Assembly: GCA_964507075.1 (NCBI GenBank)
Contig: CAZDOL010000006.1
Location: forward strand, 6,511-38,510
Reading direction: 5' to 3'
Source of the DNA: an uncultured Gammaproteobacteria bacterium
GTDB taxonomy: Bacteria > Patescibacteriota > Patescibacteriia > UBA2591 > UBA6264
DNA length: 32,000 nt
The notes under the pieces were generated by a model. That model worked only from the letters and a program-made list of their open reading frames with translations, ran no database searches and had not been told where the DNA came from. This document shows, in pieces, positions 5,739 through 31,061 of the stretch; the stretch's first letter is position 1; each line of letters opens with the position of its first letter. A program made the position numbers and the translations under genes.

Positions 5739-5753
5739 AACATAATGACTAAC

Positions 5754-5793
5754 AAAAAGGGACAGTCCCCGTTCGGGGACAGTCCCTTTTTTT
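5754..5793. terminator. Bidirectional intrinsic terminator between the convergent Wzz-like gene and recA
   Basis: AAAAA, then GGGACAGTCCCC (5759-5770), a GTTC loop, GGGGACAGTCCC (5775-5786), then TTTTTTT. This gives a 12-bp stem with one central A-A mismatch, flanked by an A-run and a T-run. Confidence 0.7.
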
Positions 5794-5814
5794 ATTAATG
5801 GGGACAGTCCCCTA

Positions 5815-6843: not shown

Positions 6844-7491
6844 TTATTCTTGTAAAATTATTTGACGAAAAATTATTTTCTCTTGAGAGTGTTTTTTCTT
6901 AGCTGAAACTTTAATGGTGTTCAAGCCAGGCAATAATTTTATTTCCTGTTCAAAATTTCCATCATTAATTTGTTCAATTGGTTGATCATTTATAAAAACA
7001 TCCGCTCCCAAATCAGCACGACCAGCAATTATTAGATACGACTCAGTGGTCACTAAATCCTGAGAAGGACTTAAAACCTCTAAATCAGACGTGAAAAGAA
7101 CTCTTTTAATGCTAAATCCAACATATAAAAAAATCAATAATGTAACGATTCCAATAAAATAAGTTTTAATATTAAAAATGCCCTGAGATCGATTTTTAAT
7201 TCCTAATATGCTTGGAATTTCCGTATTTGAACTTTGACTAAACTCTTTTCGCCACTTCTCAATTATCTTAGAAGGATTTAATTTTAAAAATTCAGCATAT
7301 CGTTCTAAAAAACCCTTAGTATAAGTAGACCCTGGCAATTTATAAAAATCATCTGCCTCTAGATATTCTAAATATTTCTTGGCAATGCCAGTCTTTTTTT
7401 CGGCATCTTTCAGGGTCCATTTATGACTTTGACGCGCTTCTTTCAAAATACCACCAATAGTGCTTTGAGGAATTGACTTGGATAAAAACAT
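6844..7491 (-). CDS. rodZ: RodZ-like cytoskeleton protein (HTH, TM and C-terminal domains)
   Basis: The N-terminal HTH plus YLEYLEADDFYKLPGSTYTKGFLERYAEFLKLNP is the RodZ signature. A single TM (FIGIVTLLIFLYVGF) and a beta-rich C-terminal domain follow. Confidence 0.6.
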   Translation of the reverse strand: MFLSKSIPQSTIGGILKEARQSHKWTLKDAEKKTGIAKKYLEYLEADDFYKLPGSTYTKGFLERYAEFLKLNPSKIIEKWRKEFSQSSNTEIPSILGIKNRSQGIFNIKTYFIGIVTLLIFLYVGFSIKRVLFTSDLEVLSPSQDLVTTESYLIIAGRADLGADVFINDQPIEQINDGNFEQEIKLLPGLNTIKVSAKKKHSQEKIIFRQIILQE

Positions 7492-7492
7492 A

Positions 7493-7540
7493 AAACATTA
7501 GAACATTAGAACATTAGAACATTAGAACATTAGAACATTT
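7493..7540. repeat. 8-nt tandem array (GAACATTA/AACATTAG), about 5.75 units
   Basis: aacattag is repeated at 7494-7533, with a partial unit running into the ftsK stop codon (7539-7541). The array ends 2 nt from the rodZ-like start codon (7491), so it occupies essentially the whole 47-nt spacer. Confidence 0.95.
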
Positions 7541-9701
7541 ATAAGTCATTATTATTTGTTCGCTCTTCTGGCTCTCCTTCTTCTTCATATGGTTTTTTAT
7601 AAACATCGCGAGGCTTTGCTCCATCTGCTGGACCAATAGTGCCCTCTTCTTCCAATAAATCTAAAAGGCGCGCTGCTCGGGCGTAACCAACCCTTAACCT
7701 TCTCTGTAAAAAAGAAGCTGAAGCTTTGCCAGCTCTAATAATTATTTCTCTGGCCTGAGGTAATAATTCATCTTCCTGTAAATCCCCAAATTTACCACTG
7801 CCACCCAAAGAAGAATGCGATTCAATAATGCCATCTTCATAATTAGGTTCAGCAATATTTTTTAAATAATCAACTATTCCTTTAATCTCTTCGTCGGAAA
7901 CATAAGCTCCTTGTATTCTCTTAGGTTTAGATAATTCAGCGTAAGTGAAAAGCATATCTCCCCTGCCCAATAACTTTTCCGCTCCAGAGAAATCTAAAAT
8001 TGTACGAGAATCAGCACCAGAAACAACTGAAAAAGCTACCCGAGCTGTAATGTTGGCTTTTATCAAACCAGTGATAACATCAACTGATGGCCTTTGGGTA
8101 GCCATAATTAAATGAATGCCAATAGCTCGCGCCATTTGAGCTAACCTAATAATGCAGGCCTCCATATCTTGAGCAGCCACAGACATTAAGTCAGCTAATT
8201 CATCAACAATGATTACAATATATGGCAATTTATTATCAGGATGAGCATCATTATAACTAGAAATGTCTCTCTTCTTGGCCTCAGACAAAACATCAAACCT
8301 TCGGTCCATCTCACCAATAGCCCATTTAAGGGCATTAATAGTCTTTGTAATGTCTGTAATAACTGGAGTTAATAAATGAGGCAATCCATTATAAAGAGTC
8401 AATTCCACTCGTTTGGGGTCAATAAAGATAAATTTTAAGTCATCAATGGAATTCTGATAAAGCAAGCTAATGATAATCGTATTTAAAAATATAGTTTTAC
8501 CAGAACCAGTTGCACCTGCAACCAATAAATGAGGCATGCGAGATAAATCAGCCAAGCAAATATCTCCCGCTACATTTCTTCCTAAAGCCAAAGTCAAATT
8601 ATTCTTTCTTTGTTTGAAACCACTGCTACCTAAAATCTCTCTTAAGCGGATAATGGCTGTTTTTTGGTTAGGAACTTCAATTCCAACCAATGATTTGCCT
8701 GGAATAGGAGCTTCAATACGAATAGGATGGGCAGCTAACGCTAAAGCCAAATCATTGCTCAGGCTGGTAATTTGGGAAAGCTTTACTCCTTCTGCTGGCT
8801 TAAGAGTATATTGAGTAACAGTAGGTCCGACTTTTATTTCTCTCATTTCCACTGGAATTGAAAAATTTTCCAAAGTTCTTCTAATAATAGAAGCATTTAA
8901 TTTTGTATCGCCTCCTTGAGCTTTAGTGGAATCACTTTCTAATAAATTAAGGGGAAGGTCAACCTTGTGAAAACTTTTAGGAGAAGGAACTGTTATTTCT
9001 AAATTCTCTTTTTCAACGTGATATGATTTTTCAGACAATTTAGAATCAGCAGCTGCTATTTCTTCAGATATTCTTTTTATGGGAGAGAAAAGCTTTCCAC
9101 AAAATTTCCTTTTAGGCCTTTCCTCAACCTCTATTATTTCTTCCTGTTCTTCCTCTGCTTCTTCTTGAACTCCTTTAGGAAGAGGATTCTTTAAAAATTT
9201 AATTTTTATCAAACCCTCAAAAATAATGATTAAAGTTACTAAAAAAATACAGATAAAAATCAATGTCGTGGCCAAAATTCCAAAAGTATTTACCAAAAAA
9301 TAGCTAAAAGCATAACCAATATAGCCACCTCCCTTGTTCGCGCTTAAAGCAGTTGAGTCAGAAACAAAATTAAGATGCATAAAACTCGCACAAATCAAAA
9401 GTAATAAAAACAAACTAAGAACTCGGGTGCTAAACTTTCGCTGTTTCTCTTGAATTTTAAAATAATTTAAAAATAAATAAGCAAGTATTAACAAAAATAC
9501 TGGAACTATCCAGCCCACCCAACCAAACAGAAAAAGAAGTCCTTGAGCTAAAAAATTTCCCACTAAACCAGCTGCATTCAATAATCCCAGAAATAAAATA
9601 ACCGCTAAAGTAATTAAAACAATAGCGATAATCAAATTCTGAGATTTGGATTTATTCTTTTTGACTTTAACTGACTTTTTTCTTACTTTAGGGCGAGACA
9701 T
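7539..9701 (-). CDS. ftsK: DNA translocase FtsK
   Basis: N-terminal TM helices, a linker, a motor domain with Walker A GATGSGKT and Walker B IVIIVDELADL, and a C-terminal gamma winged helix (FLQRRLRVGYARAARLLDLLEEEG). Confidence 0.95.
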   Translation of the reverse strand: MSRPKVRKKSVKVKKNKSKSQNLIIAIVLITLAVILFLGLLNAAGLVGNFLAQGLLFLFGWVGWIVPVFLLILAYLFLNYFKIQEKQRKFSTRVLSLFLLLLICASFMHLNFVSDSTALSANKGGGYIGYAFSYFLVNTFGILATTLIFICIFLVTLIIIFEGLIKIKFLKNPLPKGVQEEAEEEQEEIIEVEERPKRKFCGKLFSPIKRISEEIAAADSKLSEKSYHVEKENLEITVPSPKSFHKVDLPLNLLESDSTKAQGGDTKLNASIIRRTLENFSIPVEMREIKVGPTVTQYTLKPAEGVKLSQITSLSNDLALALAAHPIRIEAPIPGKSLVGIEVPNQKTAIIRLREILGSSGFKQRKNNLTLALGRNVAGDICLADLSRMPHLLVAGATGSGKTIFLNTIIISLLYQNSIDDLKFIFIDPKRVELTLYNGLPHLLTPVITDITKTINALKWAIGEMDRRFDVLSEAKKRDISSYNDAHPDNKLPYIVIIVDELADLMSVAAQDMEACIIRLAQMARAIGIHLIMATQRPSVDVITGLIKANITARVAFSVVSGADSRTILDFSGAEKLLGRGDMLFTYAELSKPKRIQGAYVSDEEIKGIVDYLKNIAEPNYEDGIIESHSSLGGSGKFGDLQEDELLPQAREIIIRAGKASASFLQRRLRVGYARAARLLDLLEEEGTIGPADGAKPRDVYKKPYEEEGEPEERTNNNDL

Positions 9702-9714
9702 AATGCAAAATTAT

Positions 9715-9740
9715 AATTCCTAATTTCTAATTCCTAATTA
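9715..9740. repeat. 7-nt tandem array AATTYCT, about 3.7 units
   Basis: aattcct aatttct aattcct aatta, starting 13 nt upstream of the ftsK start codon (9701). The same unit and orientation appear at 25173-25193. Confidence 0.85.
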
Positions 9741-9807
9741 AAACGAGGTTTCAAGGGGTTAACAAAAACGGACAATCCCCTTTTTGCAATTATAATGATA
9801 ACATTTT

Positions 9808-13615: not shown

Positions 13616-16600
13616 TTTTTCTTCCGTTTTTAATCATTTCAATATTCAAACAAAGACCTTTTAACTCTCGGATCAAAACATTAAACGACTCAGGAACATT
13701 AATTTCTTTTACCATATCACCCTTAATAATGGATTCGTAAGCTTTTGTGCGCCCAATCACATCGTCAGATTTAATGGTTAACATCTCCTGTAAAGTATAA
13801 GCAGCGCCATATCCTTCCAGAGCCCAAACCTCCATTTCCCCAAATCTTTGTCCGCCAAATTGTGCTTTCCCGCCTAAAGGCTGTTGGGTGATAAGAGAAT
13901 AAGGGCCAATAGAACGCTGATGAATTTTATCTTCCACTAAATGATTCAATTTTAAAGCATAAATATAGCCGACTGTAGTTTTATTTTTAAATTTTTCTCC
14001 AGTTTTCCCGTCATAAAGATACATTTTGCCATCAGCTGAATAGCCTGCTTTAACTAACTCTTTACTAATCTCTTCTTCTGTGACTCCATTTAAAACTGGA
14101 GTAGCTGCCCTATAATTTAATTTTTTGGCAGCTAATCCTAAATGAGTTTCTAAAATCTGCCCAATATTCATACGAGAGACAACGCCCAAAGGGTTAAGAA
14201 TAATATCAATCACTTGACCATCATCCAAATAAGGCATATCTTCTTGTGGAACAATTTTAGATACCACTCCTTTATTGCCATGGCGACCAGACATTTTGTC
14301 TCCAACCTGAATCTTCCTTAAATCAGCAACTAGGATTTGAATAGATCTAATTACGCCTGGTTGTAATTTGTCACCATTTTCTCTAGAAAATATTTTAATT
14401 CCTATGACTTTACCATGTTCGCCGTGTTCAAGGTAAAGAGAAGAATCGCGAATATCTTGAGCTTTCTCGCCAAAAATCGCCTTTAAAAGTTTTTCTTCTG
14501 CTGTTAACTCTGCTTCGCCACGAGGAGTAATTTTGCCAACCAAAATGTCTCCTGATTTTACTTCTGCACCAATTCTAATAATTCCCTCTTCATCTAGATC
14601 TTTTAATTTTACTTCACTGACGTTGGGAATGTCACGGGTAGTCATTTCCAGACCAAACTTTGTTTCGCGAATATCAATCGTATGCTCATCAATGTGCAAA
14701 GAGCTAAATTTATCATTTTGCACCAAACGAGAAGACAGCAAAATAGCATCTTCAAAATTTCCCCCCTCCCAAGACATAAAGGCGCAAAGAACATTATGAC
14801 CCAAAGCTAACTCACCATTTTCCATTGAGGCCCCTTCAACTAAAATATCTCCTGCTTTAAATTTCTCTCCCATAGCAACCACCGGTTGTTGATTAAAACA
14901 AGTATTAAAATTAGAACGATCGTATTTTTTTAAACTGTAATTCTGACTAAGACCTGATTTATAGCGCAAAACAATATGAGCAGAATCAACTTCCATGACC
15001 TTTCCGTCTTCAGGAGCTTCAAGTAAATGACCAGAATCCCGAGCCGCCCTACCCTCAACGCCAGTACCAACCAAAGGAGTATCTGGTTTAATTAATGGAA
15101 CAGCTTGACGTTGCATATTACTGCCCATTAAAGCTCGAACCCCATCATCATGTTCTAAGAAAGGAATAAGTGCAGTAGCCACGCTCACAATCTGATTAGC
15201 AGCTATGTCAGTAAATTCAACTTCACTTGTTTTACAAAAACCAGGATGACCATAAATCCGAGCCTCTACAGTGTTATTAATAATCTTATTGTTTTTATCA
15301 ATAGCCGACGTAAAAGGCATTAAAATATGTTCTTCTTCTTCAAATGCATTTAAAAAAGTAATTTCCTTGGTTATTTTTCCTTTAATTACTTTATAGTAGG
15401 GGGTTTCAATAAACCCATATTCATTTAAACGCGAATAGCAAGCTAAATAATTAACCAAACCAACGTTTGGTCCTTCTGGGGTAGCAATAGGACAAATCTT
15501 GCCATAATAAGTTCTGTGCACATCACGCACTTCAAATCCAGCCCTCTCCCTAGATAAACCACCAGGACCAACAACAGTTAATCTTCTTTTATGCTCTAAT
15601 TCAGAAAGTATGTTGGTTTGATCCATGAATTGAGAGAGCTGAGAAGACATAAAAAATTCTCTAATTACTCCCACAATTGGCTTAATATTTATCAATTGTG
15701 CTGGTCCGTATTTTTTAGACTCAATAAGACCCATTCTGTCGCGAACAATCCTTTGTACCCTTAACATCCCCACTCTCATCCTATTTTGTACTAATTCCCC
15801 AATAGCCCTCACCCTACGATTAGATAAATGGTCAATATCATCCGCAGGAGTTTGTCTAACATTGAGTCTAATCAATTCACTTATAATGGCTTTAAGATCT
15901 TCTGGCCTGATAGTGCGCTTGGTTATCTTGGGATCTAAATGAAGGCGCTGACTCAATTTATATCTTCCCACTTTACTGAGATCATAACGGCTATAATTGA
16001 AAAACATAGCATATATTAAAGACCTAGCATTATCAGCAGTTGCCAAATCTCCTGGTCTAATTTTACGATAAACCTCAATTAAACCTCCGTCTTCTGAGGC
16101 CGAAGGATCTTTATCTAAGGTATTCTGGACATATTTGCTATTTATAATTTCTTTGTCTCTTTTGAATAAATCCAAAATTTCCTTATCTGAGCCAAAACCA
16201 AAAACTCGCAAGAGCGCAGTAGCGGGAATTTTCCTTTGGCGATCAATTCTTACCCAAATTATTCCCTTGGTGTCGGTTTCAAACTCCAGCCAAGCTCCTC
16301 TATCAGGAATAACCTTGGCACTATAATAAAATCGACCCTTAAGACGAGTACGAGCAAAAATAATACCAGGCGATCTAATTAATTGCTGAATAATAACCCT
16401 TTCAATCCCATTAATAATTAAAGTCCCCTTGTCAGTCATCAAGGGGATGTCTCCAAAATAAACATCTTGTTCTATTTTCTTGCCTGTTTTTTTGTTAATT
16501 AAACGCACCTTTACTGTTAAAGGTGCTTCATATGTTAAATTTCTATTTTTACTAATAATTTGATCAAATTTTGGATTCCCCAAAGAACAATTTAAAAAAT

Positions 16601-16778
16601 GTAATTCAAAATTTTTGCCAATCAGGTCTTCAATCGGCGAAAATTCTTTTATTAATTCTCCTATTCCTTGATTTAAAAACCAATCATATGATAATTTCTG
16701 GTTTTTGGTCAAATCTGGCAAAGTGGCATTAGAATTAATGGTAGCTTTTGAAAAAAATTTACGTTTTTGAGAAAACAT
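13608..16778 (-). CDS. rpoB: DNA-directed RNA polymerase subunit beta
   Basis: Full-length RpoB-like sequence, including GRHGNKGVVS, NPLGVVSRMNIGQILE and GGQRFGEMEVWALEGYGAAYTLQE. Confidence 0.98.
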   Translation of the reverse strand: MFSQKRKFFSKATINSNATLPDLTKNQKLSYDWFLNQGIGELIKEFSPIEDLIGKNFELHFLNCSLGNPKFDQIISKNRNLTYEAPLTVKVRLINKKTGKKIEQDVYFGDIPLMTDKGTLIINGIERVIIQQLIRSPGIIFARTRLKGRFYYSAKVIPDRGAWLEFETDTKGIIWVRIDRQRKIPATALLRVFGFGSDKEILDLFKRDKEIINSKYVQNTLDKDPSASEDGGLIEVYRKIRPGDLATADNARSLIYAMFFNYSRYDLSKVGRYKLSQRLHLDPKITKRTIRPEDLKAIISELIRLNVRQTPADDIDHLSNRRVRAIGELVQNRMRVGMLRVQRIVRDRMGLIESKKYGPAQLINIKPIVGVIREFFMSSQLSQFMDQTNILSELEHKRRLTVVGPGGLSRERAGFEVRDVHRTYYGKICPIATPEGPNVGLVNYLACYSRLNEYGFIETPYYKVIKGKITKEITFLNAFEEEEHILMPFTSAIDKNNKIINNTVEARIYGHPGFCKTSEVEFTDIAANQIVSVATALIPFLEHDDGVRALMGSNMQRQAVPLIKPDTPLVGTGVEGRAARDSGHLLEAPEDGKVMEVDSAHIVLRYKSGLSQNYSLKKYDRSNFNTCFNQQPVVAMGEKFKAGDILVEGASMENGELALGHNVLCAFMSWEGGNFEDAILLSSRLVQNDKFSSLHIDEHTIDIRETKFGLEMTTRDIPNVSEVKLKDLDEEGIIRIGAEVKSGDILVGKITPRGEAELTAEEKLLKAIFGEKAQDIRDSSLYLEHGEHGKVIGIKIFSRENGDKLQPGVIRSIQILVADLRKIQVGDKMSGRHGNKGVVSKIVPQEDMPYLDDGQVIDIILNPLGVVSRMNIGQILETHLGLAAKKLNYRAATPVLNGVTEEEISKELVKAGYSADGKMYLYDGKTGEKFKNKTTVGYIYALKLNHLVEDKIHQRSIGPYSLITQQPLGGKAQFGGQRFGEMEVWALEGYGAAYTLQEMLTIKSDDVIGRTKAYESIIKGDMVKEINVPESFNVLIRELKGLCLNIEMIKNGRKIK

Positions 16779-16802
16779 ATAGCAAAAGGCACTAAAAATT
16801 CC

Positions 16803-16820
16803 CTCAGAAAAAAATCTGAG
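16803..16820 (-). promoter_or_regulatory. Small hairpin in the rpoB leader (CTCAGA-A6-TCTGAG)
   Basis: A 6-bp stem with a 6-nt loop, 25-42 nt upstream of the rpoB start, within a 190-nt AT-rich spacer. Its function is unknown. Confidence 0.2.
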
Positions 16821-16883
16821 AGCTTATTATTTTAAAATTGAATCAAATTTATAAACAAAATGAAAAAATTAAATAGCTCTAAT

Positions 16884-19244: not shown

Positions 19245-19964
19245 TTATATTTTTTTATTTAAACTATTCTTAGAGGTTATATTAATATCTTCAAAAAGTC
19301 CCTTTTGATCAATCTCAATCTTGTGACATTTCATCAATTCTAAAATAGCTAAAAACATTACTGATTTCTCGGCTTTTGATTTATTTTCAATTACTTTATT
19401 AAATATAAACTGCCCTTTCTCATGCAACAAAGACAACATTTCATTTATCTTACTTTTTAAAGAGAAAACTCTACGCTTAACGGTTTTTAAAGACAATCTG
19501 GCTTGCTCTTTAATAATAAAAATAAAACTCCCAAAATTTTTTCTCAAAACATGAGAGTTAAGATTATGTGGAAAATTAAAGGCAAAAACAATCTTTCCAG
19601 ATAATTTATCTTTACTAAAACAACAACGTGGATTGGAAAAAAGTTCTCCTACTTTTTTGGTAGCAGAAACATATTCTTGATAAAGCCTTAATTGATTTAC
19701 CAAACCACGAGAATCTTCTTCGTCTTCGTCTAAAATCTGTTCTGGAAGCAACAATTTGGATTTAATGAGAATGAGTTTAGCAGCTATATTCAAAAAATCA
19801 GCTAATTCTCCCGTCCTAATTTTTTCAATCTCTTTTATGTAACCTAAAAACTGATTAGTCACCTGAACTAAAGCAATTTCCGTAATATCTAATTTTTCCT
19901 TTTCAATTAAATGCAACAACAAGTCAAATGGTCCTTGAAATTGAGGAAGATTAATATTGTACAT
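19245..19964 (-). CDS. scpA: Segregation and condensation protein A (kleisin)
   Basis: The N-terminus FQGPFDLLLHLIEKEKLDITEIALVQVTNQFLGYI is the ScpA signature. Confidence 0.85.
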   Translation of the reverse strand: MYNINLPQFQGPFDLLLHLIEKEKLDITEIALVQVTNQFLGYIKEIEKIRTGELADFLNIAAKLILIKSKLLLPEQILDEDEEDSRGLVNQLRLYQEYVSATKKVGELFSNPRCCFSKDKLSGKIVFAFNFPHNLNSHVLRKNFGSFIFIIKEQARLSLKTVKRRVFSLKSKINEMLSLLHEKGQFIFNKVIENKSKAEKSVMFLAILELMKCHKIEIDQKGLFEDINITSKNSLNKKI

Positions 19965-20010
19965 AAAAATATTAAAACAAATGTTAAATCTTATGTAAAA
20001 TAACGTTGAG

Positions 20011-20139
20011 ATGCGATATAACGCGTGATAATAAAATATTTAAATACAGGGTTAAAATTTTAGAAAAACATACCATTTAATGGCACGAGAAGGGTCCTTA
20101 GAGCAATGTTGCAAAAGACCAACCCGACGGGTTTGTATT
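20011..20139. repeat. Copy A of a conserved intergenic element of about 129 bp
   Basis: Collinear with 23550-23678. Both share ATGCGATATAA, then a 33-nt variable stretch, then an 85-nt core with about 75 of 85 positions identical by hand count. The core includes a 37-nt identical block (20097-20133). The right end abuts the alaS stop codon. Confidence 0.9.
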
Positions 20140-21958
20140 AATTAAGGATGGCTTTTATTCGGCGGATGCCGGCGCTACTGGATTTTTCTTTAATGATTTT
20201 GAATTGTCCTAATTCCTTAGTGTTTTTGACATGAGGTCCGGCACAAATTTCCATACTAAAAGGAAATTCTGAGCTTGTAGAAGAACTATCACCGATTGTG
20301 TAGACTTTGACTATTTCTGGATATTTTTCTCTGAAAAAAGCTAAAGCCCCCCCTTCAATTGCTTGCTTATATGGCATTTCTTTCATTGTGACAAGAAGCG
20401 CTTCTTGTATTTTCTTGTTTACAATTTCTTCTATTTTAATTTTTTCTTCTTCTGTTAATTTCTGAGAATAAGTAAAATCAAATCTAAGGCGTTCGGGGTT
20501 GATGTCTGAGCCAGCCTGATGGACACTATCTCCTAAAACTTCTCTTAATGCCTGATGTAAAAGATGAGTGGCAGTATGTAGCTTGGTAACCTTTATTTTA
20601 GATTCTTCGCTTTCAACACTATCAATGCCAACTCCCCCAAATTTATTCTGCACTCCCGCTTTAGAAATCTCTTGATGTTTTTTAGATTCTCTTTCAACAG
20701 CATTTTCATCTATTTTCAAATTTTCTTTTCTAGCTATTTCTCCCGTTACCCCAGGATGAAGACCATAAGTATCGTATAAATGAAAAACTGTCTTAGGGTC
20801 AAGAAAATTTTGTTTCTTGGAATGTGCTTCTTTAACTATATCTTTAAGTCTTTTCAATCCTATGGAAGTAGTTTGATTAAATTTATTTTCTTCGTTTTCT
20901 ATTGTCCTTAAAATGTCATCTTTATTTTCAACTAATTCTGGATAAAAATTAGAATATAAATCAATGGCTGTTTGGGCTATTGGGAGTAAAAATTCTTCTT
21001 GGTCGTTAATCAACTTTGAGCAACGCATTGCTCTTCTAATAAGACGCCTTAAGATATATCCCCTGTCTTCTTTGCTGGGCAGAATGCCATCTGAAATTAA
21101 AAAACAAGCTGCCCGAACATGGTCAGCAATAATTCTTTGATATTTTTTGTTAATTTCATCGACATTAGCAATTTCTTCAATCTTATGCATTAAAGGTAAA
21201 AATAAATCTGTTTCATAGTCAGAGGGCTTGTTTTGTAAAACGCAAGCTAATCTTTCCAAACCCGCGCCAGTGTCAATATTTTTAACTGTTAATTTTTCAT
21301 AACTTCCATCTGCTGTTTTATTATATTCCATAAAAACCAAGTTCCAAATTTCTACAAATCTTCCACAACTACAATTTGGTCCACAATTAGGCTGGTCGCA
21401 TTCTTTAATTTTAAAATTTAATCCTCTGTCATAATATATTTCCGAACAAGGGCCACAAGGACCGTTGCTACCAATTGGCCCCCAAAAATTATCTTTTATT
21501 CCAAAATAACTTATTCGTTCTTTGGGAATCCCGTTTTCTAACCAAATTTTTTCAGCTTCTTTGTCTACCTCTATTCCTTTAGTTCCATCAAAAAGAGTAA
21601 CCCAAATATGGGCAATATCTAAATAATAATAATTGGTTAATAGGTCCATTGCCATTTGAATTGCTTCTTTTTTAAAATAACCATCAAAAGACCAATTACC
21701 TAACATCTGAAAAAAGGTATGGTGAAATTCGTCTCCGACTTCCTCAATGTCTGAGGTGCGAAAACATTTTTGAATAGAACAAATTTCACTATCAATTGGA
21801 TTAATTTTTCCACTCAAAAAAGGAATAAATTGTTGCATGCCAGCAGAAGTAAAAAGCACGCTCTGATCAGCGGGAATCAAAGAAGACGAGGGCATAATTT
21901 TATGCCCCTTTTTTTGGAAATAATCTAAAAAAATTTCTCTAATTTCACTAACTTTCAT
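20138..21958 (-). CDS. alaS: Alanine--tRNA ligase, short form lacking the C-Ala domain
   Basis: FTSAGMQQF, NGPCGPCSEIYYD, and the editing-domain zinc motifs HTATHLLH and CAGPHV. The protein ends about 35 aa after CAGPHV, at 606 aa. Confidence 0.95.
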   Translation of the reverse strand: MKVSEIREIFLDYFQKKGHKIMPSSSLIPADQSVLFTSAGMQQFIPFLSGKINPIDSEICSIQKCFRTSDIEEVGDEFHHTFFQMLGNWSFDGYFKKEAIQMAMDLLTNYYYLDIAHIWVTLFDGTKGIEVDKEAEKIWLENGIPKERISYFGIKDNFWGPIGSNGPCGPCSEIYYDRGLNFKIKECDQPNCGPNCSCGRFVEIWNLVFMEYNKTADGSYEKLTVKNIDTGAGLERLACVLQNKPSDYETDLFLPLMHKIEEIANVDEINKKYQRIIADHVRAACFLISDGILPSKEDRGYILRRLIRRAMRCSKLINDQEEFLLPIAQTAIDLYSNFYPELVENKDDILRTIENEENKFNQTTSIGLKRLKDIVKEAHSKKQNFLDPKTVFHLYDTYGLHPGVTGEIARKENLKIDENAVERESKKHQEISKAGVQNKFGGVGIDSVESEESKIKVTKLHTATHLLHQALREVLGDSVHQAGSDINPERLRFDFTYSQKLTEEEKIKIEEIVNKKIQEALLVTMKEMPYKQAIEGGALAFFREKYPEIVKVYTIGDSSSTSSEFPFSMEICAGPHVKNTKELGQFKIIKEKSSSAGIRRIKAILN

Positions 21959-21962
21959 TCTT

Positions 21963-23432
21963 TTATTTGTTATTCTTCTCTTTTTCCGTGCGATTTTTCT
22001 TTAAACATGTTTTACAATAAACAGGCCGAACGCCGTCTGGAACAAAAGGAACTTGAACTGTAACTCCACAACCCGAACACTTGGCTTCATATTTTACTAT
22101 TTTCTCAGCTGGCAAAAATTCGCCAGGCTTTATTACGCCGCTCCAACGAGCTATTTTTTCTTCTACTAATTTTCGCGGTTCTGCATATCGTTCTCTAGAA
22201 ACTTTAATTATCTTTTGTGCATTACCCTCTGGTTTAGATAAAGGAGGTAAGGTTAAAGCGGAAAATGGTTCTGAGGTGAGCCCATCTATCATTAATTTAA
22301 CATATATATTATATTGATCTAAATCTACTAAATCCTCTTCTTCAAAACGTGGTACAAATTCTTTTGCCAAAAAATCAGCATCTTTAGCTCCCACCCTAAA
22401 AACAACCATAGTTCCTACGTTGCCAAATATAGCATCTCTAACCCGAGAAGTGTCCTTAACTGTTAACTGGTCAATATATTGATGAGCTAAAATTAAATTT
22501 AAATGATATTTTCGAGCTTCAGACAAAATGTCAGCAAAGGATTCAGTGGCAAAATTTTGAAATTCATCAACATAAAGATAAAAATCTTGTCTTTCCTCTT
22601 CTGGAATATTAATTCTACTCATAACGGCCATCTGAATTTTGGTAATCATCATTGCTCCCAACAAAGCTGAAGCATCCTCTCCGATTCTCCCCTTAGAAAG
22701 ATTCATAATTAGAATCTTTTTGTTATCCATTATCTCTCGCAAATTTATTTTTGACTTTACTTGACCTACAATGTCTCTAATTAAAGAAGTAGATAAAAAT
22801 TGCCCCACCTTATTCTGAATTGGAGCAATTGCCTCAGCGCGCAAACGGTCTGGATATTTGGGATATTCATTGGTCCAAAAAGATTTCACTACTGGGTCTG
22901 TTAAGCGATCAACAACCTTTTTTCTAAATTCCTTATCAACCAATATTCTCATAATTCCCAAAAGCGTGCTTCCGGGATATTCCAATAAGGCTAAAATTGT
23001 ATTTCTTAATACATACTCTAAGCGAGGACCCCAAGAATCAGCCCAAATTTTCTTAAAAACACCGACCAAACCAGAGGCCACCAAGTGACGTTGGCTGGCA
23101 TCCACCTGCTCTAAAACATTAAGAGCAAAGGGGTTTTCTGTATCTGCTGGATTAAAATATATAACATCATTGATTCTATTTGCCGGAATAAAATCTAAAG
23201 CCCTTTCAGCCAAATCACCATGAGGATCTACAATAGCAACTCCATGACCCATCTGAATATCTTGATAAATCATATTTTCTAATGTCGTTGATTTGCCAGT
23301 CCCAGTTTTACCAATTAAATACATATGGCGCCGACGATCTTGGCGCTTAATTCCAAATTTTTTACGAATATTTCGATAATTTGTTTCTGCAAAGAGGACT
23401 ATTTCATTATCGTTTTGCGAAAAATCAGCCAT
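21963..23432 (-). CDS. TraD/VirD4-like (TraG-D_C type) P-loop ATPase with a C-terminal CxxC-x17-CxxC zinc ribbon
   Basis: Walker A GKTGTGKST, Walker B-like FYLYVDEFQNF, then SEARKYHLNLILAHQYIDQL (typical of coupling-protein ATPases). The C-terminus is CSGCGVTVQVPFVPDGVRPVYCKTC. I chose the start at MADFSQ (23432) rather than the ORF-track ATG at 23468. No N-terminal TM segment is present. Confidence 0.75.
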   Translation of the reverse strand: MADFSQNDNEIVLFAETNYRNIRKKFGIKRQDRRRHMYLIGKTGTGKSTTLENMIYQDIQMGHGVAIVDPHGDLAERALDFIPANRINDVIYFNPADTENPFALNVLEQVDASQRHLVASGLVGVFKKIWADSWGPRLEYVLRNTILALLEYPGSTLLGIMRILVDKEFRKKVVDRLTDPVVKSFWTNEYPKYPDRLRAEAIAPIQNKVGQFLSTSLIRDIVGQVKSKINLREIMDNKKILIMNLSKGRIGEDASALLGAMMITKIQMAVMSRINIPEEERQDFYLYVDEFQNFATESFADILSEARKYHLNLILAHQYIDQLTVKDTSRVRDAIFGNVGTMVVFRVGAKDADFLAKEFVPRFEEEDLVDLDQYNIYVKLMIDGLTSEPFSALTLPPLSKPEGNAQKIIKVSRERYAEPRKLVEEKIARWSGVIKPGEFLPAEKIVKYEAKCSGCGVTVQVPFVPDGVRPVYCKTCLKKNRTEKEKNNK

Positions 23433-23439
23433 AGTCTTT

Positions 23440-23468
23440 ATTATATTAAGATTAGAGAAAAAAAACAA
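23440..23468 (-). promoter_or_regulatory. Candidate promoter TTGTTT-17 nt-TATAAT for the ATPase-alaS pair
   Basis: On the - strand, TTGTTT lies at 23468-23463 and TATAAT at 23445-23440, with a 17-nt spacer. The -10 ends 7 nt before the ATG at 23432, which would give a near-leaderless mRNA. The AT-rich background makes chance matches likely. Confidence 0.3.
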
Positions 23469-23549
23469 GATGGAACTTGGGGATTAAAAATATATACTAA
23501 TGATGATTTTTGATAATTAATTAATAAAACATGTCTGATATCAGCAGAA

Positions 23550-23678
23550 ATGCGATATAAGACGTTATGAAGAAATGAAAATGCATGTCCCCACAATTTT
23601 GAAAAAACATACCCTTTAATGACACAAGAAGTGGTCTTAGAGCAATGTTGCAAAAGACCAACCCGACGGGTTAGTATT
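23550..23678. repeat. Copy B of the conserved intergenic element of about 129 bp
   Basis: See copy A. The 37-nt identical block is at 23636-23672. The right end overlaps the stop codon and last codons of the MraY/WecA-family gene. Confidence 0.9.
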
Positions 23679-24747
23679 TTTTCTTTTTGGGGAGGAAATA
23701 TATTAGGAAGCTGCCGAGAATCACTAATGCTAACAGGGCTATAGCTTTGCCTTGAGTTTGTAAAAAAAGAGCAATAAAACCAAAAATCAAAGCAATGGAC
23801 CAATAAAAAATAACTGCCATGCGATGTGAAAGACCAGATTCAAGTAAACGAAAATGAAGATGCTTTTTGTCTGCACTAAAAACAGAATGACGTTTTTCAA
23901 AGAATCTCTGGAAGACAACACTAATTAAATCTAAAACAGCTAAACCTAAAATTAAAAAGGTTGTAGCAAATTTACTACCCGAGATTATAGCCAAAACACC
24001 CAAAAAAAACCCTGCCAAGAGGCTACCACCTTCTCCTAAAAAAATTTTAGCTGGATGAAAATTAAAAATTAAAAATCCCAAAAAAGCGCCTGCCAAAATT
24101 AAAGCCATAGTTGCTATATCTGGCTGATAAAATTGCGTGAATAAACAAAGAGCAGTAATGCTTAAAGCACCAATAACTGTAACACCTGAAACCAAACCAT
24201 CTAAACCATCAAGTAATTTAGTAGAATACATTAATAATAATAACCAAAAAAAAGTTAAAACATCGGATAAAGGAGTAAAATAATAAGGAACTCCATTTAA
24301 TCTAAGTATTTCAATCTTGATTGTATCAAAATATAAATAACCAGAACCAAAAGGATTATTCATAAATGTAATGCCTATTCCACTAATAATTATAGCTAAA
24401 CATGCTAAGACAGGCCAAATAAATTGTTGAACAGGAGATAAATGATATTTGTCATCTAAAAAACCGCCGAGCATTAAAAATGAGGCGGCAATTATTATAC
24501 CGATTAAGTGCTTATTCAATGGAACCAATCCTGGCAACAAAGAAAAATGTTTAGCAATTAATAAAACAATAAAGAATGAAAGAAAAATAGCAACTCCGCC
24601 CATAAGTGGAATTGCCTTAGTATGAATTTTTCTTTTGTTGGTTTCTGGCCTATCTAATATATTAAATTTAATTGCGAGCCATCGTATAAATGGTGTTAAA
24701 ATCAACGACAGAATAAAACTAACAAGAAAAAAAATTAAGAATAACAT
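23671..24747 (-). CDS. MraY/WecA-family polyprenyl-phosphate sugar-phosphate transferase (glycosyltransferase family 4)
   Basis: A polytopic membrane protein of about 10 TM segments, with MGGVAIF, GGFLDDKYHLSP and LLDGLDGLVSG, all motifs of the MraY/WecA superfamily. Confidence 0.8.
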   Translation of the reverse strand: MLFLIFFLVSFILSLILTPFIRWLAIKFNILDRPETNKRKIHTKAIPLMGGVAIFLSFFIVLLIAKHFSLLPGLVPLNKHLIGIIIAASFLMLGGFLDDKYHLSPVQQFIWPVLACLAIIISGIGITFMNNPFGSGYLYFDTIKIEILRLNGVPYYFTPLSDVLTFFWLLLLMYSTKLLDGLDGLVSGVTVIGALSITALCLFTQFYQPDIATMALILAGAFLGFLIFNFHPAKIFLGEGGSLLAGFFLGVLAIISGSKFATTFLILGLAVLDLISVVFQRFFEKRHSVFSADKKHLHFRLLESGLSHRMAVIFYWSIALIFGFIALFLQTQGKAIALLALVILGSFLIYFLPKKKKY

Positions 24748-24751
24748 AATA

Positions 24752-24796
24752 ATGCTCTAATGTTCAAATGTTCTCATGTTCAAATGTCTGATGGTC
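24752..24796. repeat. 8-nt-period array of ATGYTC hexamers, about 5-6 units
   Basis: atgctc(ta) atgttc(aa) atgttc(tc) atgttc(aa) atgtct(g) atggtc. This is the reverse orientation of the GAACAT arrays at 7493-7540 and 30224-30262. It covers the spacer before the transferase start (24747) and the last 10 codons of ruvX. Confidence 0.85.
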
Positions 24797-25162: not shown

Positions 25163-25172
25163 AAGTTAAAAT

Positions 25173-25193
25173 AATTTCTAATTTCTAATTCCT
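25173..25193. repeat. 7-nt tandem array AATTYCT, 3 units
   Basis: aatttct aatttct aattcct, starting 10 nt upstream of the ruvX start codon (25162). Same unit and orientation as 9715-9740. Confidence 0.85.
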
Positions 25194-25208
25194 AAAGATG
25201 TCCAAAAT

Positions 25209-25249
25209 GGGGACAGGCACCTTCGGAGCCAGTCCCCGGGACAGTCCCC
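25209..25249 (-). terminator. GC-rich hairpin plus an adjacent GGGACAGTCCCC motif downstream of map
   Basis: 25209-25237, GGGGACAGGCACCTTCGGAGCCAGTCCCC, folds into a stem of about 11 bp with two A-A mismatches. On the - strand it is followed by ATTTTGG. A further GGGACAGTCCCC copy lies at 25238-25249. Confidence 0.5.
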
Positions 25250-25274
25250 TCCAGCTCCTCTTTAACGACTGACG

Positions 25275-26834: not shown

Positions 26835-26903
26835 AAAAATGCTTCGCTTAAAATTCCAAATACAGATTTCATAGAGGATCATTGATGGCTTCGCCATCGG
26901 GAC

Positions 26904-26968
26904 AAACTCTAAATTCTAAACTCTAAATTCTAAACAAATTCTAAACTCTAAATTCAAAATTCTAAACA
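26904..26968. repeat. 7-nt tandem array AAAYTCT, about 9 units, with 14-nt higher-order structure
   Basis: aaactct aaattct aaactct aaattct aaac aaattct aaactct aaattca aaattct aaaca, in the secY-adk spacer. Confidence 0.9.
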
Positions 26969-26985
26969 TATTTATTTTAATCATT

Positions 26986-27031
26986 TGGATTTTGATATTG
27001 TTTCGGATTTCGGATTTCGGATTTCGGATTT
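26986..27031. repeat. 7-nt tandem array CGGATTT: 4 perfect units plus degenerate leading units
   Basis: tggattt tgatatt gttt, then cggattt x4 (27004-27031). Confidence 0.85.
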
Positions 27032-27048
27032 CCGTTGCAAGGCAACGG
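27032..27048 (-). other. Perfect hairpin CCGTTGC-AAG-GCAACGG abutting the secY stop codon
   Basis: A 7-bp stem with a 3-nt loop, directly adjacent to the secY stop (27049-27051). On the - strand it is followed by the (AAATCCG)n array rather than a U-run, so it is not a canonical terminator. Confidence 0.5.
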
Positions 27049-29667: not shown

Positions 29668-30216
29668 TTAAGTTCCAGTACTTACTGCCTTTTTGCCTGC
29701 CTTACGCCTAATAAACTCGTCAACATATTTCACCCCCTTGCCTTTGTATGGCTCTGGCTTTCGAAAGCGTCTAATCTTAGCTGCAGCATCTCCAACTTTT
29801 TGTTTATTGATGCCAGTGATAATAATTAAATTCTTTTCAGTTGTTATTTCTATGTCTGGGGAAATAATATATTCTATAGGATGAGAAAAGCCCAAACGCA
29901 AAATCAGCTTGTTATTATTTACTTCTGCTTTATACCCAACGCCAACAAGTTCTAATCTTTTTTCAAACCCATCTGTCACTCCTTTAATCATATTAAATAT
30001 TAATCTATTTATGGTTCCCCATAACGATTTTTGCTTTTTGTCTTCAGGGTTTTTTATGCTCACAGTTAATTTATCATCTTTAATTACAACTCGCAAAAAA
30101 TCTGGCAAAACTTGCTTAAGTTCACCTTTCCTTCCTTTAACTAAAATTTCTTCCTTTTCAATTTTTATTTCTACTGCTTCTGGAACAAAAATAATTTGTT
30201 TTCCAATTCTACTCAT
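29668..30216 (-). CDS. rplF: 50S ribosomal protein L6
   Basis: MSRIGKQIIFVPEAVEIKIE...LVGVGYKA...GFSHPIEY. Confidence 0.95.
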   Translation of the reverse strand: MSRIGKQIIFVPEAVEIKIEKEEILVKGRKGELKQVLPDFLRVVIKDDKLTVSIKNPEDKKQKSLWGTINRLIFNMIKGVTDGFEKRLELVGVGYKAEVNNNKLILRLGFSHPIEYIISPDIEITTEKNLIIITGINKQKVGDAAAKIRRFRKPEPYKGKGVKYVDEFIRRKAGKKAVSTGT

Positions 30217-30223
30217 AAGTTAA

Positions 30224-30262
30224 GTCATTTGAACATTAGAACATTTGAACATTAGAACATTA
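30224..30262. repeat. 8-nt tandem array GAACATTW: 4 full units plus a degenerate leading unit
   Basis: gtcattt gaacatta gaacattt gaacatta gaacatta. It ends 8-9 nt upstream of the rplF start codon (30216). Same family and orientation as 7493-7540. Confidence 0.9.
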
Positions 30263-30293
30263 ATGCTAAAAATCAAATGTCTGTGGTCAAACG

Positions 30294-30328
30294 GATTAAT
30301 TATTAATTATTAACTATTGATTGTTAAA
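30294..30328. repeat. Degenerate 7-nt array TATTRAY, about 5 units
   Basis: gattaat tattaat tattaac tattgat tgttaaa. Related to 13581-13615. Confidence 0.55.
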
Positions 30329-30330
30329 TT

Positions 30331-30358
30331 GTTCCCATGTTCCCATGTTCCCATGTTA
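30331..30358. repeat. 8-nt tandem array GTTCCCAT (ATGTTC + CC), 3.5 units
   Basis: gttcccat x3 plus gtta, ending at the base before the rpsH stop codon (30359-30361). The ATGTTC core is in the opposite orientation to 30224-30262. Confidence 0.9.
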
Positions 30359-30784: not shown

Positions 30785-30826
30785 ATTTCTCAATTATTTT
30801 AATTAATATAATTATTTTAATAAAAT

Positions 30827-30865
30827 CCCGATTACCTAAGTACCCGATTACCTAAGTACCCATTA
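30827..30865. repeat. 16-nt tandem repeat CCCGATTACCTAAGTA, 2.4 units
   Basis: Units at 30827-30842 and 30843-30858, both perfect, plus partial cccatta at 30859-30865. It ends 2 nt before the rpsN stop codon (30868-30870). Confidence 0.95.
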
Positions 30866-30867
30866 TA

Positions 30868-31053
30868 TTACCATGATGATTTTCGAATTCCTGGGATAGC
30901 GCCCTTGGTTGCTAATTCTCTAAAACAAATACGACAAAGGCCGAATTCTCTCATGTATCCATGCCTTCTCCCACAACGCCAACATCGTCTCACAATACGT
31001 GTGCTATACTTAGGTGGTTTTTTCGATTTGACTATTTGCGAAATCTTGGCCAT
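30868..31053 (-). CDS. rpsN: 30S ribosomal protein S14, type Z (zinc-binding, 61 aa)
   Basis: [23 protein letters not shown] is the C4 zinc form of short S14. Confidence 0.93.
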
Positions 31054-31061
31054 AAAAAATA

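Follow-up and report, generated by a model that had tools for sequence, protein, structure and literature searches.

A conserved module of about 130 bp stands at two separate gene junctions in a 32,000-nucleotide (nt) stretch of contig CAZDOL010000006.1, hereafter the window, bracketing a gene pair made up of a VirD4/TraD-like ATPase gene and alaS. What does this module do, and how did the same sequence come to lie at both junctions? The answer that we favour, tentatively and at somewhat short of an even chance, is that the module would be a duplicated cassette of terminator and promoter/operator, specific to one lineage and kept as two paralogous intergenic copies, A and B.

A repeat search of the window aligned 20056-20139 with 23595-23678 as a direct repeat of 84 nt at 89% identity, and a second matching stretch, 20008-20037 against 23547-23576, which contains the motif ATGCGATATAA, lies at the same offset of 3539 nt. 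One block of 37 nt, CTTAGAGCAATGTTGCAAAAGACCAACCCGACGGGTT, is wholly identical between the two copies; by our arithmetic, the chance expectation for an exact repeat of this length in 32 kb is about 1e-14. These data confirm the direct repeat with its identical 37-nt block that was reported in an earlier note made from the sequence of the window, and also the placement described there. All the genes of the repeat region lie on the minus strand, and in their direction each copy begins at, or overlapping, the stop codon of the upstream gene and ends before the next start codon, which is 46 nt past the end of copy A and 117 nt past the end of copy B. The ATPase start is the ATG at 23432, which is conserved in relatives, and the TTG at 23468 given in the list of open reading frames (ORFs) is wrong. 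Searches of the 32-kb window with sub-motifs, mismatches being allowed, returned no sites besides copies A and B. The parts of the two copies are as follows.

20011-20139, minus strand: copy A of the module, at the junction of the alaS stop and scpA (covariance-model match 20056-20139, 101.6 bits)
20118-20136, minus strand: hairpin P1 of copy A (ACAAACCC-GTC-GGGTTGGT, core stem 20121-20133), the predicted alaS terminator hairpin (from covariation and a terminator scan)
20113-20117, minus strand: T-run CTTTT of copy A, adjoining P1 on its 3' side, with little or no variation across all 18 aligned copies
20056-20112, minus strand: conserved core of copy A (GCAACATTGCTCTAAG ... CTTCTCGTG ... ATTAAATGGTATGTTTTTCTAAAATT), defined by primary-sequence conservation only
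20067-20072, minus strand: TATGTT hexamer of copy A, a candidate -10 element with a putative promoter role (from the 18-copy alignment)
20022-20055, minus strand: spacer of copy A, poorly conserved and of fixed length
20011-20021, minus strand: TTATATCGCAT motif of copy A (on the plus strand, ATGCGATATAA)
23550-23678, minus strand: copy B of the module, at the junction of the glycosyltransferase stop and the ATPase gene (covariance-model match 23595-23678, 104.7 bits)
23657-23675, minus strand: hairpin P1 of copy B, core stem 23660-23672, whose 5' arm holds the glycosyltransferase TAA (23671-23673)
23595-23656, minus strand: T-run and conserved core of copy B, with TATGTT at 23606-23611
23550-23560, minus strand: TTATATCGCAT motif of copy B

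The first part of the module, P1, occupies the first 23 columns of an alignment of 18 distinct copies. It has a G+C-rich stem of 8 bp and a loop of 3 nt, and 92% of the cells in its helix columns (4-12 with 16-23) are paired. Both sides have changed in four of the eight pairs, giving a covariation score that none of 500 shuffles reached, and RNAalifold likewise predicts the hairpin. The hairpin AACCC-GAC-GGGTT that the earlier note had pointed out is therefore real and covaries; the stem is found as AACCC/GGGTT, GGACCCC/GGGGTCC and CTGACCC/GGGTCAG in different copies, and a wholly different hairpin is present in one relative (L130). An A-rich tract lies ahead of P1, the upstream stop codon is 0-10 nt away, and the T-rich columns 24-28 (four to six T) come after the hairpin; T24 and T25 never vary, and at least 90% of copies keep T26 and T27. 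A T-run also follows P1 on the plus strand, both in the two window copies, where it was found by the terminator scan, and in all B copies. Taken together, the covariation, the T-run and the proximity of the stop codon mean that P1 reads as an intrinsic (Rho-independent) terminator, which would end transcription of alaS at copy A and of the glycosyltransferase gene at copy B, and which is probably bidirectional.

Two further observations concern this hairpin. The called glycosyltransferase ORF of one relative (L004, 5214-6278) passes through P1 and stops at a TAA within the conserved CTCTAAG of copy B, so that part of the element doubles as coding sequence there. The hairpin TTAACCTCGCGAGGTCAAC stands in for P1 in L130 (7350-7372), and is found downstream of the copy A core in L001 (9935-9975), a sign that such junctions may trade small hairpin modules.

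The second part is the core of about 58 columns, which is 79% identical among A copies, compared with 83% for the first 150 nt of the scpA coding sequence, while the spacer between the conserved blocks diverges freely. The hexamer at alignment columns 70-75 reads TATGTT in 16 of the 18 copies and TATATT in the other two, and the span from this hexamer to the end of TTATATCGCAT measures 59-60 nt in 13 of 13 copies. The downstream part that carries TTATATCGCAT has been lost from the A copies of L007, L015 and L001; P1 and the core are never lost.

The core and TTATATCGCAT are conserved as primary sequence, without supported helices on either strand. RNAalifold returned no helix except P1 on either strand, a scan of all column pairs found no helix-like runs, and minimum-energy folds vary from copy to copy. 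Several individual stems were considered and rejected: the GGTCTT/AAGACC stem (P2) shows no covariation above that of shuffles; the CGTGYC/GGTATG helix (P3) is made up predominantly of G-U pairs, with zero compensatory changes; the 10-bp helix AACAUUGCUCU/AGGGUAUGUU (P5) is 93% pairable, with no compensatory change and with six mismatches at the only pair that varies on both sides; and hairpins in the spacer have z-scores of -2 to +1.5 on the two strands, with no predicted structure. None of 4227 Rfam covariance models matched at its gathering threshold anywhere in the window, a permissive E-value brought up chance-level matches only (E at least 0.23, with bits far under threshold), and a search for tRNA and tmRNA found none. 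The covariation check suggested at the outset upheld P1 and no other helix; with single-sequence folds that disagree and nothing in Rfam at or near threshold, neither the multi-helix structured RNA nor the GGTCTT...AAGACC stem of the earlier note is borne out.

We investigated the distribution of the module on contigs around ScpA homologues of 55-84% identity (the relatives numbered L here). ScpA homology shows the organism of the window to belong to the Parcubacteria, within the Candidate Phyla Radiation, and its closest named relative is 'Parcubacteria bacterium 4484_255'. Gene order is conserved among the compared contigs; the genes in the window, and the copies found in the relatives, are given below.

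19245-19964, minus strand: scpA
20138-21958, minus strand: alaS, in a short form of 606 amino acids (aa)
21963-23432, minus strand: VirD4/TraD-like ATPase gene, with a C-terminal zinc finger
23671-24747, minus strand: family-4 glycosyltransferase gene, MraY/WecA type

L001/L002, L004-6, L015 and L128: copies A and B at the equivalent two junctions
L007-9, L010/11 and L130: copy A (alaS-scpA) only
L133 and L126/L136: copy A, the contig stopping short of the other junction
L012/13 (ScpA 70% identical) and the outgroup L135 (55%): neither copy

The relatives that bear the element have ScpA proteins 72-84% identical to that of the window, and because they keep their copies at the same two positions, the repeat is not a recent local duplication of a terminator, which had been put forward as the fallback explanation. 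The element is no chance repeat but a conserved functional unit under selection; it is a two-copy family of a narrow Parcubacteria clade, and neither a dispersed repeat nor a recent neutral duplication. A profile search with nhmmer found no third context, and the covariance model, run with filters off, returned after the two window copies only a match of 23.8 bits, which is the palindrome on the opposite strand. Degenerate pattern scans were extended to 596 Gb of genomes and 241 million metagenome records; all 41 matches in the genome collections were chance matches from unrelated phyla, and about 12 of the 70 metagenome matches were real, all in the two known contexts. Genome, metagenome and viral collections, none of which includes the source contig, gave no exact 24-mer match, and blastn against phage and plasmid collections likewise found nothing. 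Every genuine match lies after alaS or after the glycosyltransferase gene, with at most two copies per genome across the 32 kb of the window genome, 238 kb of relatives and the pattern scans. This pattern, of two sites per genome and no third context in any search, speaks against the miniature dispersed element that was one of the early suggestions. No gene was found to occur only alongside the element, a 91-aa ORF after scpB being absent from several element-bearing genomes.

The covariance model additionally gave two weak matches of 17.8 and 19.2 bits (E 0.2-0.7), in the window at 16763-16831 (minus strand) and in L007 at 15363-15426 (plus strand). Both lie at an orthologous spot just upstream of rpoB, and they are probably merely a hairpin plus T-run.

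Copy A is the older of the two, and copy B is a later duplicate. In L012/13, where the element is absent, the gap between alaS and scpA is 7 nt, indicating that ATPase-alaS-scpA-scpB form one unit there, and the ATPase gene has TTGACA-17-TATAAT, 7 nt before its ATG, as its only promoter. In the outgroup L135 alaS is absent from the locus, and scpA comes directly after the ATPase gene (L135 8470-10714, compared with window 19245-23432), indicating that alaS was inserted between these two genes on the window lineage, before the element arose.

The two copies have since exchanged sequence by gene conversion. Copies A and B have the same P1 variant as each other in the window, in L001 and in L004, although the variant differs among these genomes, and neighbour-joining groups A with B in the window/L001 lineage, apart from their positional orthologues. 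Direct evidence comes from two nearly identical strains, L001 and L002, whose sequences show 26 differences over 20714 positions. Six of these fall in a stretch of 22 nt in copy B, and five of the six turn copy B into the copy A sequence of the same genome, which is a gene-conversion tract. We found no sign of the excision or duplication of the ATPase-alaS segment that direct repeats might in principle mediate, and that the earlier note had raised; the repeats show gene conversion instead. Were the 3.5-kb segment lost, alaS would go with it, a gene that is presumably essential.

Under our preferred reading, the module would act in three parts. An intrinsic, probably bidirectional terminator would close the transcript of the upstream gene, and the approximately 60 bp of conserved DNA downstream would serve as a promoter/operator that restarts the next unit, scpA-scpB at copy A and ATPase-alaS at copy B. 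TATGTT/TATATT would be the -10 element, and the AACATTGCTCTAAG and CTTCT blocks upstream of it would be bound by a regulator or by RNA polymerase; in the long forms, the variable spacer of fixed length and TTATATCGCAT would form a third part, maybe a second promoter element or operator. Copy A would have come first, splitting an ancestral ATPase-alaS-scpA-scpB operon, and copy B would be the later duplicate, set upstream of the ATPase gene's own promoter, with gene conversion maintaining the likeness of the two.

The argument for this role is clearest in L007/8/9, where the 58-nt core is the sole non-coding DNA from the terminator CTGACCC-GTC-GGGTCAG-TTTTT, a strong one by its sequence, to the scpA ATG, and TATGTT, which has the three -10 positions that matter most (T at -12, A at -11 and T at -7), stands 11 nt ahead of that ATG. 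With a terminator ahead of scpA-scpB, a new promoter is needed behind it, unless the terminator leaks. All 18 copies have the A at position 2 and the T at position 6 of a sigma-70-type -10 element. From the core that stands alone between terminator and scpA, the near-invariant hexamer and the fixed spacings we infer a promoter/operator role for the core; fixed spacings beside free sequence point to DNA that is read by proteins. Among the options listed in the earlier note, the evidence of the P1 terminator, the conserved hexamer and the fixed spacings thus favours the terminator-promoter cassette and the protein-binding module.

Several points weigh against this reading, however. The hexamer has no TTGACA-like -35 element at 16-18 nt, the sequence there being NNCMTT, and a scan for consensus promoters did not call it. 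The near-continuous conservation over about 58 nt is more than most promoters require, and an RNA seed or an extended protein-binding site would account for it equally. The module keeps its distance to the upstream stop codon, whereas the gap from the end of the core to the next start codon varies from 0 to about 160 nt. P1 could be leaky, with scpA in L007 expressed by read-through. Finally, scpA and the ATPase gene each have a plausible proximal promoter in the window, so that one further upstream is not required:

19965-19999, minus strand: TTTACA-17-TTTAAT, candidate proximal promoter of scpA, 6 nt ahead of its ATG, in a leaderless-type layout (from reading of the sequence)
23440-23468, minus strand: TTGTTT-17-TATAAT, putative proximal promoter of the ATPase gene, 7 nt ahead of its ATG at 23432 (from its match to the consensus)

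The second of these has a counterpart, TTGACA-17-TATAAT, in relatives without copy B.

The main rival, a serious one though we consider it doubtful, is that the copies are paralogous genes for small RNAs (sRNAs), read either antisense or sense. The antisense form, on the plus strand, would start near ATGCGATATAA, or at an AAT just outside the core, cross the core, where it would bear CCCUU/CCUU motifs resembling an anti-Shine-Dalgarno sequence, and end at P1 as a bidirectional terminator. The sense form would be a read-through RNA or one derived from the 3' untranslated region (3'-UTR), made up of P1 and the core and ending at a conserved GUUUUU. The order of the elements on the plus strand, from the end motif through a variable stretch and a conserved body to a hairpin and T-run, is the classic layout of an sRNA gene, and about 58 nt conserved without covariation resembles an unstructured seed or protein-binding segment of an RNA. 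Yet the hints as to which strand would be transcribed contradict one another. In both window copies the minus strand outdoes shuffled sequences in folding (z about -2.9) and the plus strand does not (z about 0), and the helix AACAUUGCUCU/AGGGUAUGUU is 93% pairable on the sense strand only, but the small hairpin AUGCG-AUAUAA-CGCGU, around the ATGCGATATAA motif, has its better pairing in the antisense RNA. P1 offers a terminator to either strand, and promoter candidates are inconsistent among copies: the antisense -10 candidates lack the A at -11 in about half of the copies, and TATAAC and TATAAG lack the T at -7, while for a sense RNA the B copies show no conserved promoter ahead of P1. The three A copies named above (L007A, L015A and L001A) have kept the core and lost the ATGCGATATAA motif, helices besides P1 show zero compensatory changes, the minimum-energy folds differ among copies, and Rfam has no match. 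On this reading the core would be the body of an as yet undescribed sibling sRNA pair, or of a 3'-UTR-derived RNA, restricted to a Parcubacteria clade and flanking ATPase-alaS, with bidirectional terminators shared with the upstream genes and with gene conversion holding the two identical; a version to which we give the same doubtful standing is a self-contained copy-and-paste insulator, of terminator and regulated promoter, able to split operons.

It is unlikely that the core, the fixed spacer and TTATATCGCAT form a protein site on DNA with a role outside transcription, whether in chromosome organisation (SMC-ScpAB), site-specific recombination (of the res or att type) or replication. The fixed spacings around freely varying sequence, a total length of about 130 bp that resembles composite recombination or partition sites, the direct orientation of the copies and the adjacent scpA-scpB genes would suit such a site. 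However, recombinase and partition genes are absent near the element, in the window and in the gene tables of relatives, the bracketed segment holds alaS, gene order is the same in relatives without the repeats, and several genomes carry one copy only. No palindromes resembling parS, dif or DnaA boxes were seen on reading the sequence, and by-eye comparison with the parS, dif, DnaA-box, sigma-54, extracytoplasmic function (ECF) sigma and integration host factor (IHF) consensus sequences found none that fits. Cumulative GC skew is monotonic through the region, and without a change in skew a replication origin or terminus is unlikely.

We consider it very improbable that the module is a miniature inverted-repeat transposable element (MITE), a hairpin element of the repetitive extragenic palindrome (REP) or IS200-605 type inserted twice, or a neutral and recent duplication of a terminator. 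In its favour, the two copies are alike, both open with a hairpin right after a stop codon, and copy B is clearly a secondary acquisition. Nevertheless, the copies number only two, with contexts constant across all searched collections; terminal inverted repeats, target-site duplications and a hairpin at the second end were not seen, and no transposase lies nearby. Both copies are under purifying selection across lineages (ScpA 72-84% identical) while the adjacent spacer diverges, which excludes a neutral recent duplication.

Least probable of all is a coding role for the core, as a small protein or as a C-terminal extension made by read-through, in the frame ...PVGLVFCNIALRPLLVSLKGMFF..., a reading that is largely refuted: this frame is open in 15 of 18 copies, is in frame with the upstream stop codon, has some changes that look conservative or synonymous (AAG to CGG; CTA to TTA or CTG; CTC/CTG/CTT/CTA) and has the highest synonymous fraction among the six frames, but that fraction comes to 0.32, where scpA of these genomes has 0.65, the element's other frames 0.24-0.27 and the B-type extension frame 0.21. 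A conserved start codon is absent, several A copies have an in-frame TGA ahead of the frame, and 1-nt deletions or an in-frame stop break it in L007A, L008A and L128A, where the nucleotides are still conserved. A search of 5.8 billion proteins found none with as many as three 5-residue words in common with the translation of 49 residues, and by our estimate an open frame of 24 codons is expected by chance among six frames in about two thirds of cases. Particular ORFs were discarded on similar grounds: the sense ORF PVGLVFCNIALR... for its low synonymous fraction, missing start codon, broken frame and lack of a homologue, the sense ORF MFFQN...ITSYIAFL because synonymous change is not in excess, and the antisense ORF MAREGSLEQCCKRPTRRV because its ATG reads ATA in L004A and a stop interrupts it in L007A.

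Other repeats and a further ORF were noted elsewhere in the window. An 8-nt unit, TAATGTTC on the gene strand, is repeated in tandem in four to six copies at 7475-7556 and 30213-30278 and, inverted, at 24750-24789, where the array overlaps the end of ruvX. The TAATGTTC arrays lie immediately upstream of start codons, and also upstream of scpA in L130, L128 and L004; their last unit is often TAATGTTTTT-ATG, which resembles the GTATGTTTTT of the core. Further short tandem repeats, (AGGAATTAGAAATT)n, (TTTAGAATTTAGAG)n, (AATCCGA)4 and (ACATGGGA)3, are found in intergenic DNA just before starts (9713-9737 and 25171-25195; 26902-26965; 26898-27048; 30217-30358), which is unusual for so compact a genome. 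The palindrome GGGGACTGTCCCC and its close variants occur downstream of genes, up to three per intergenic region (5739-5814, 25163-25274 and 9702-9807), and look like a second, different terminator or repeat family of the same genome. At 1795-1856 a 29-nt unit, TGTAGTAAGTTAGTACCAGTTTACGACAA, stands twice in tandem with 97% identity and a 33-nt period, between a TTGACT hexamer resembling a -35 element and a gene start at 1870. Finally, the 268-nt 'intergenic' gap at 30794-31061 holds an unlisted small ORF whose translation resembles a zinc-type ribosomal protein S14.

Set beside known systems, the element is ordinary in kind (a terminator with a regulatory junction, possibly an sRNA pair) and new as a sequence family. 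P1 resembles intrinsic terminators, including bidirectional ones built of A-tract, hairpin and U-tract, in its 8-bp G+C-rich stem, short loop, U-run and upstream A-tract, and also in that its stem covaries freely and has been replaced by an unrelated hairpin in one lineage. The module differs from an ordinary terminator in the approximately 60 nt downstream that are conserved like coding DNA and are kept together with it as a two-copy family. It is like a sigma-70 terminator-promoter junction in lying between two transcription units and in a hexamer with T at -12, A at -11 and T at -7, and other genes of the lineage show TATAAT 7 nt before the ATG, as in promoters of the short-leader or leaderless type; unlike such junctions, it has no recognisable -35 element and a far longer continuous conservation, and the whole junction has been copied to a second locus and homogenised by gene conversion. 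Qrr, PrrF1/2 and CsrB/C are sibling sRNAs encoded in multiple copies, and the module resembles them in its two intergenic, lineage-restricted units, each about 100-130 nt long, in which an unstructured segment is conserved and a terminator hairpin forms the end, but its promoter is inconsistent on either strand and internal stem-loops lack covariation support. As with REP elements and bacterial interspersed mosaic elements (BIMEs), a hairpin right 3' of a stop codon within a former operon could stabilise the upstream mRNA; REP elements, however, number tens to hundreds of copies and are essentially a palindrome, whereas the module has two copies and is conserved mostly outside its palindrome.

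The effect of these results is limited to a narrow lineage, and general principles are unchanged. To our knowledge, almost nothing is known of transcription signals or non-coding regulation in the Candidate Phyla Radiation, since these organisms cannot be grown alone. The module provides a concrete and testable case of an operon split by a terminator and a conserved unit, which was later copied. If the sRNA pair were true, it would be a new RNA family, and in the Candidate Phyla Radiation few candidates for trans-acting regulatory RNAs would precede it. Should the core instead prove to be a promoter/operator, a promoter type would be defined by it, together with a small regulon that joins chromosome-segregation genes and a VirD4-like ATPase.

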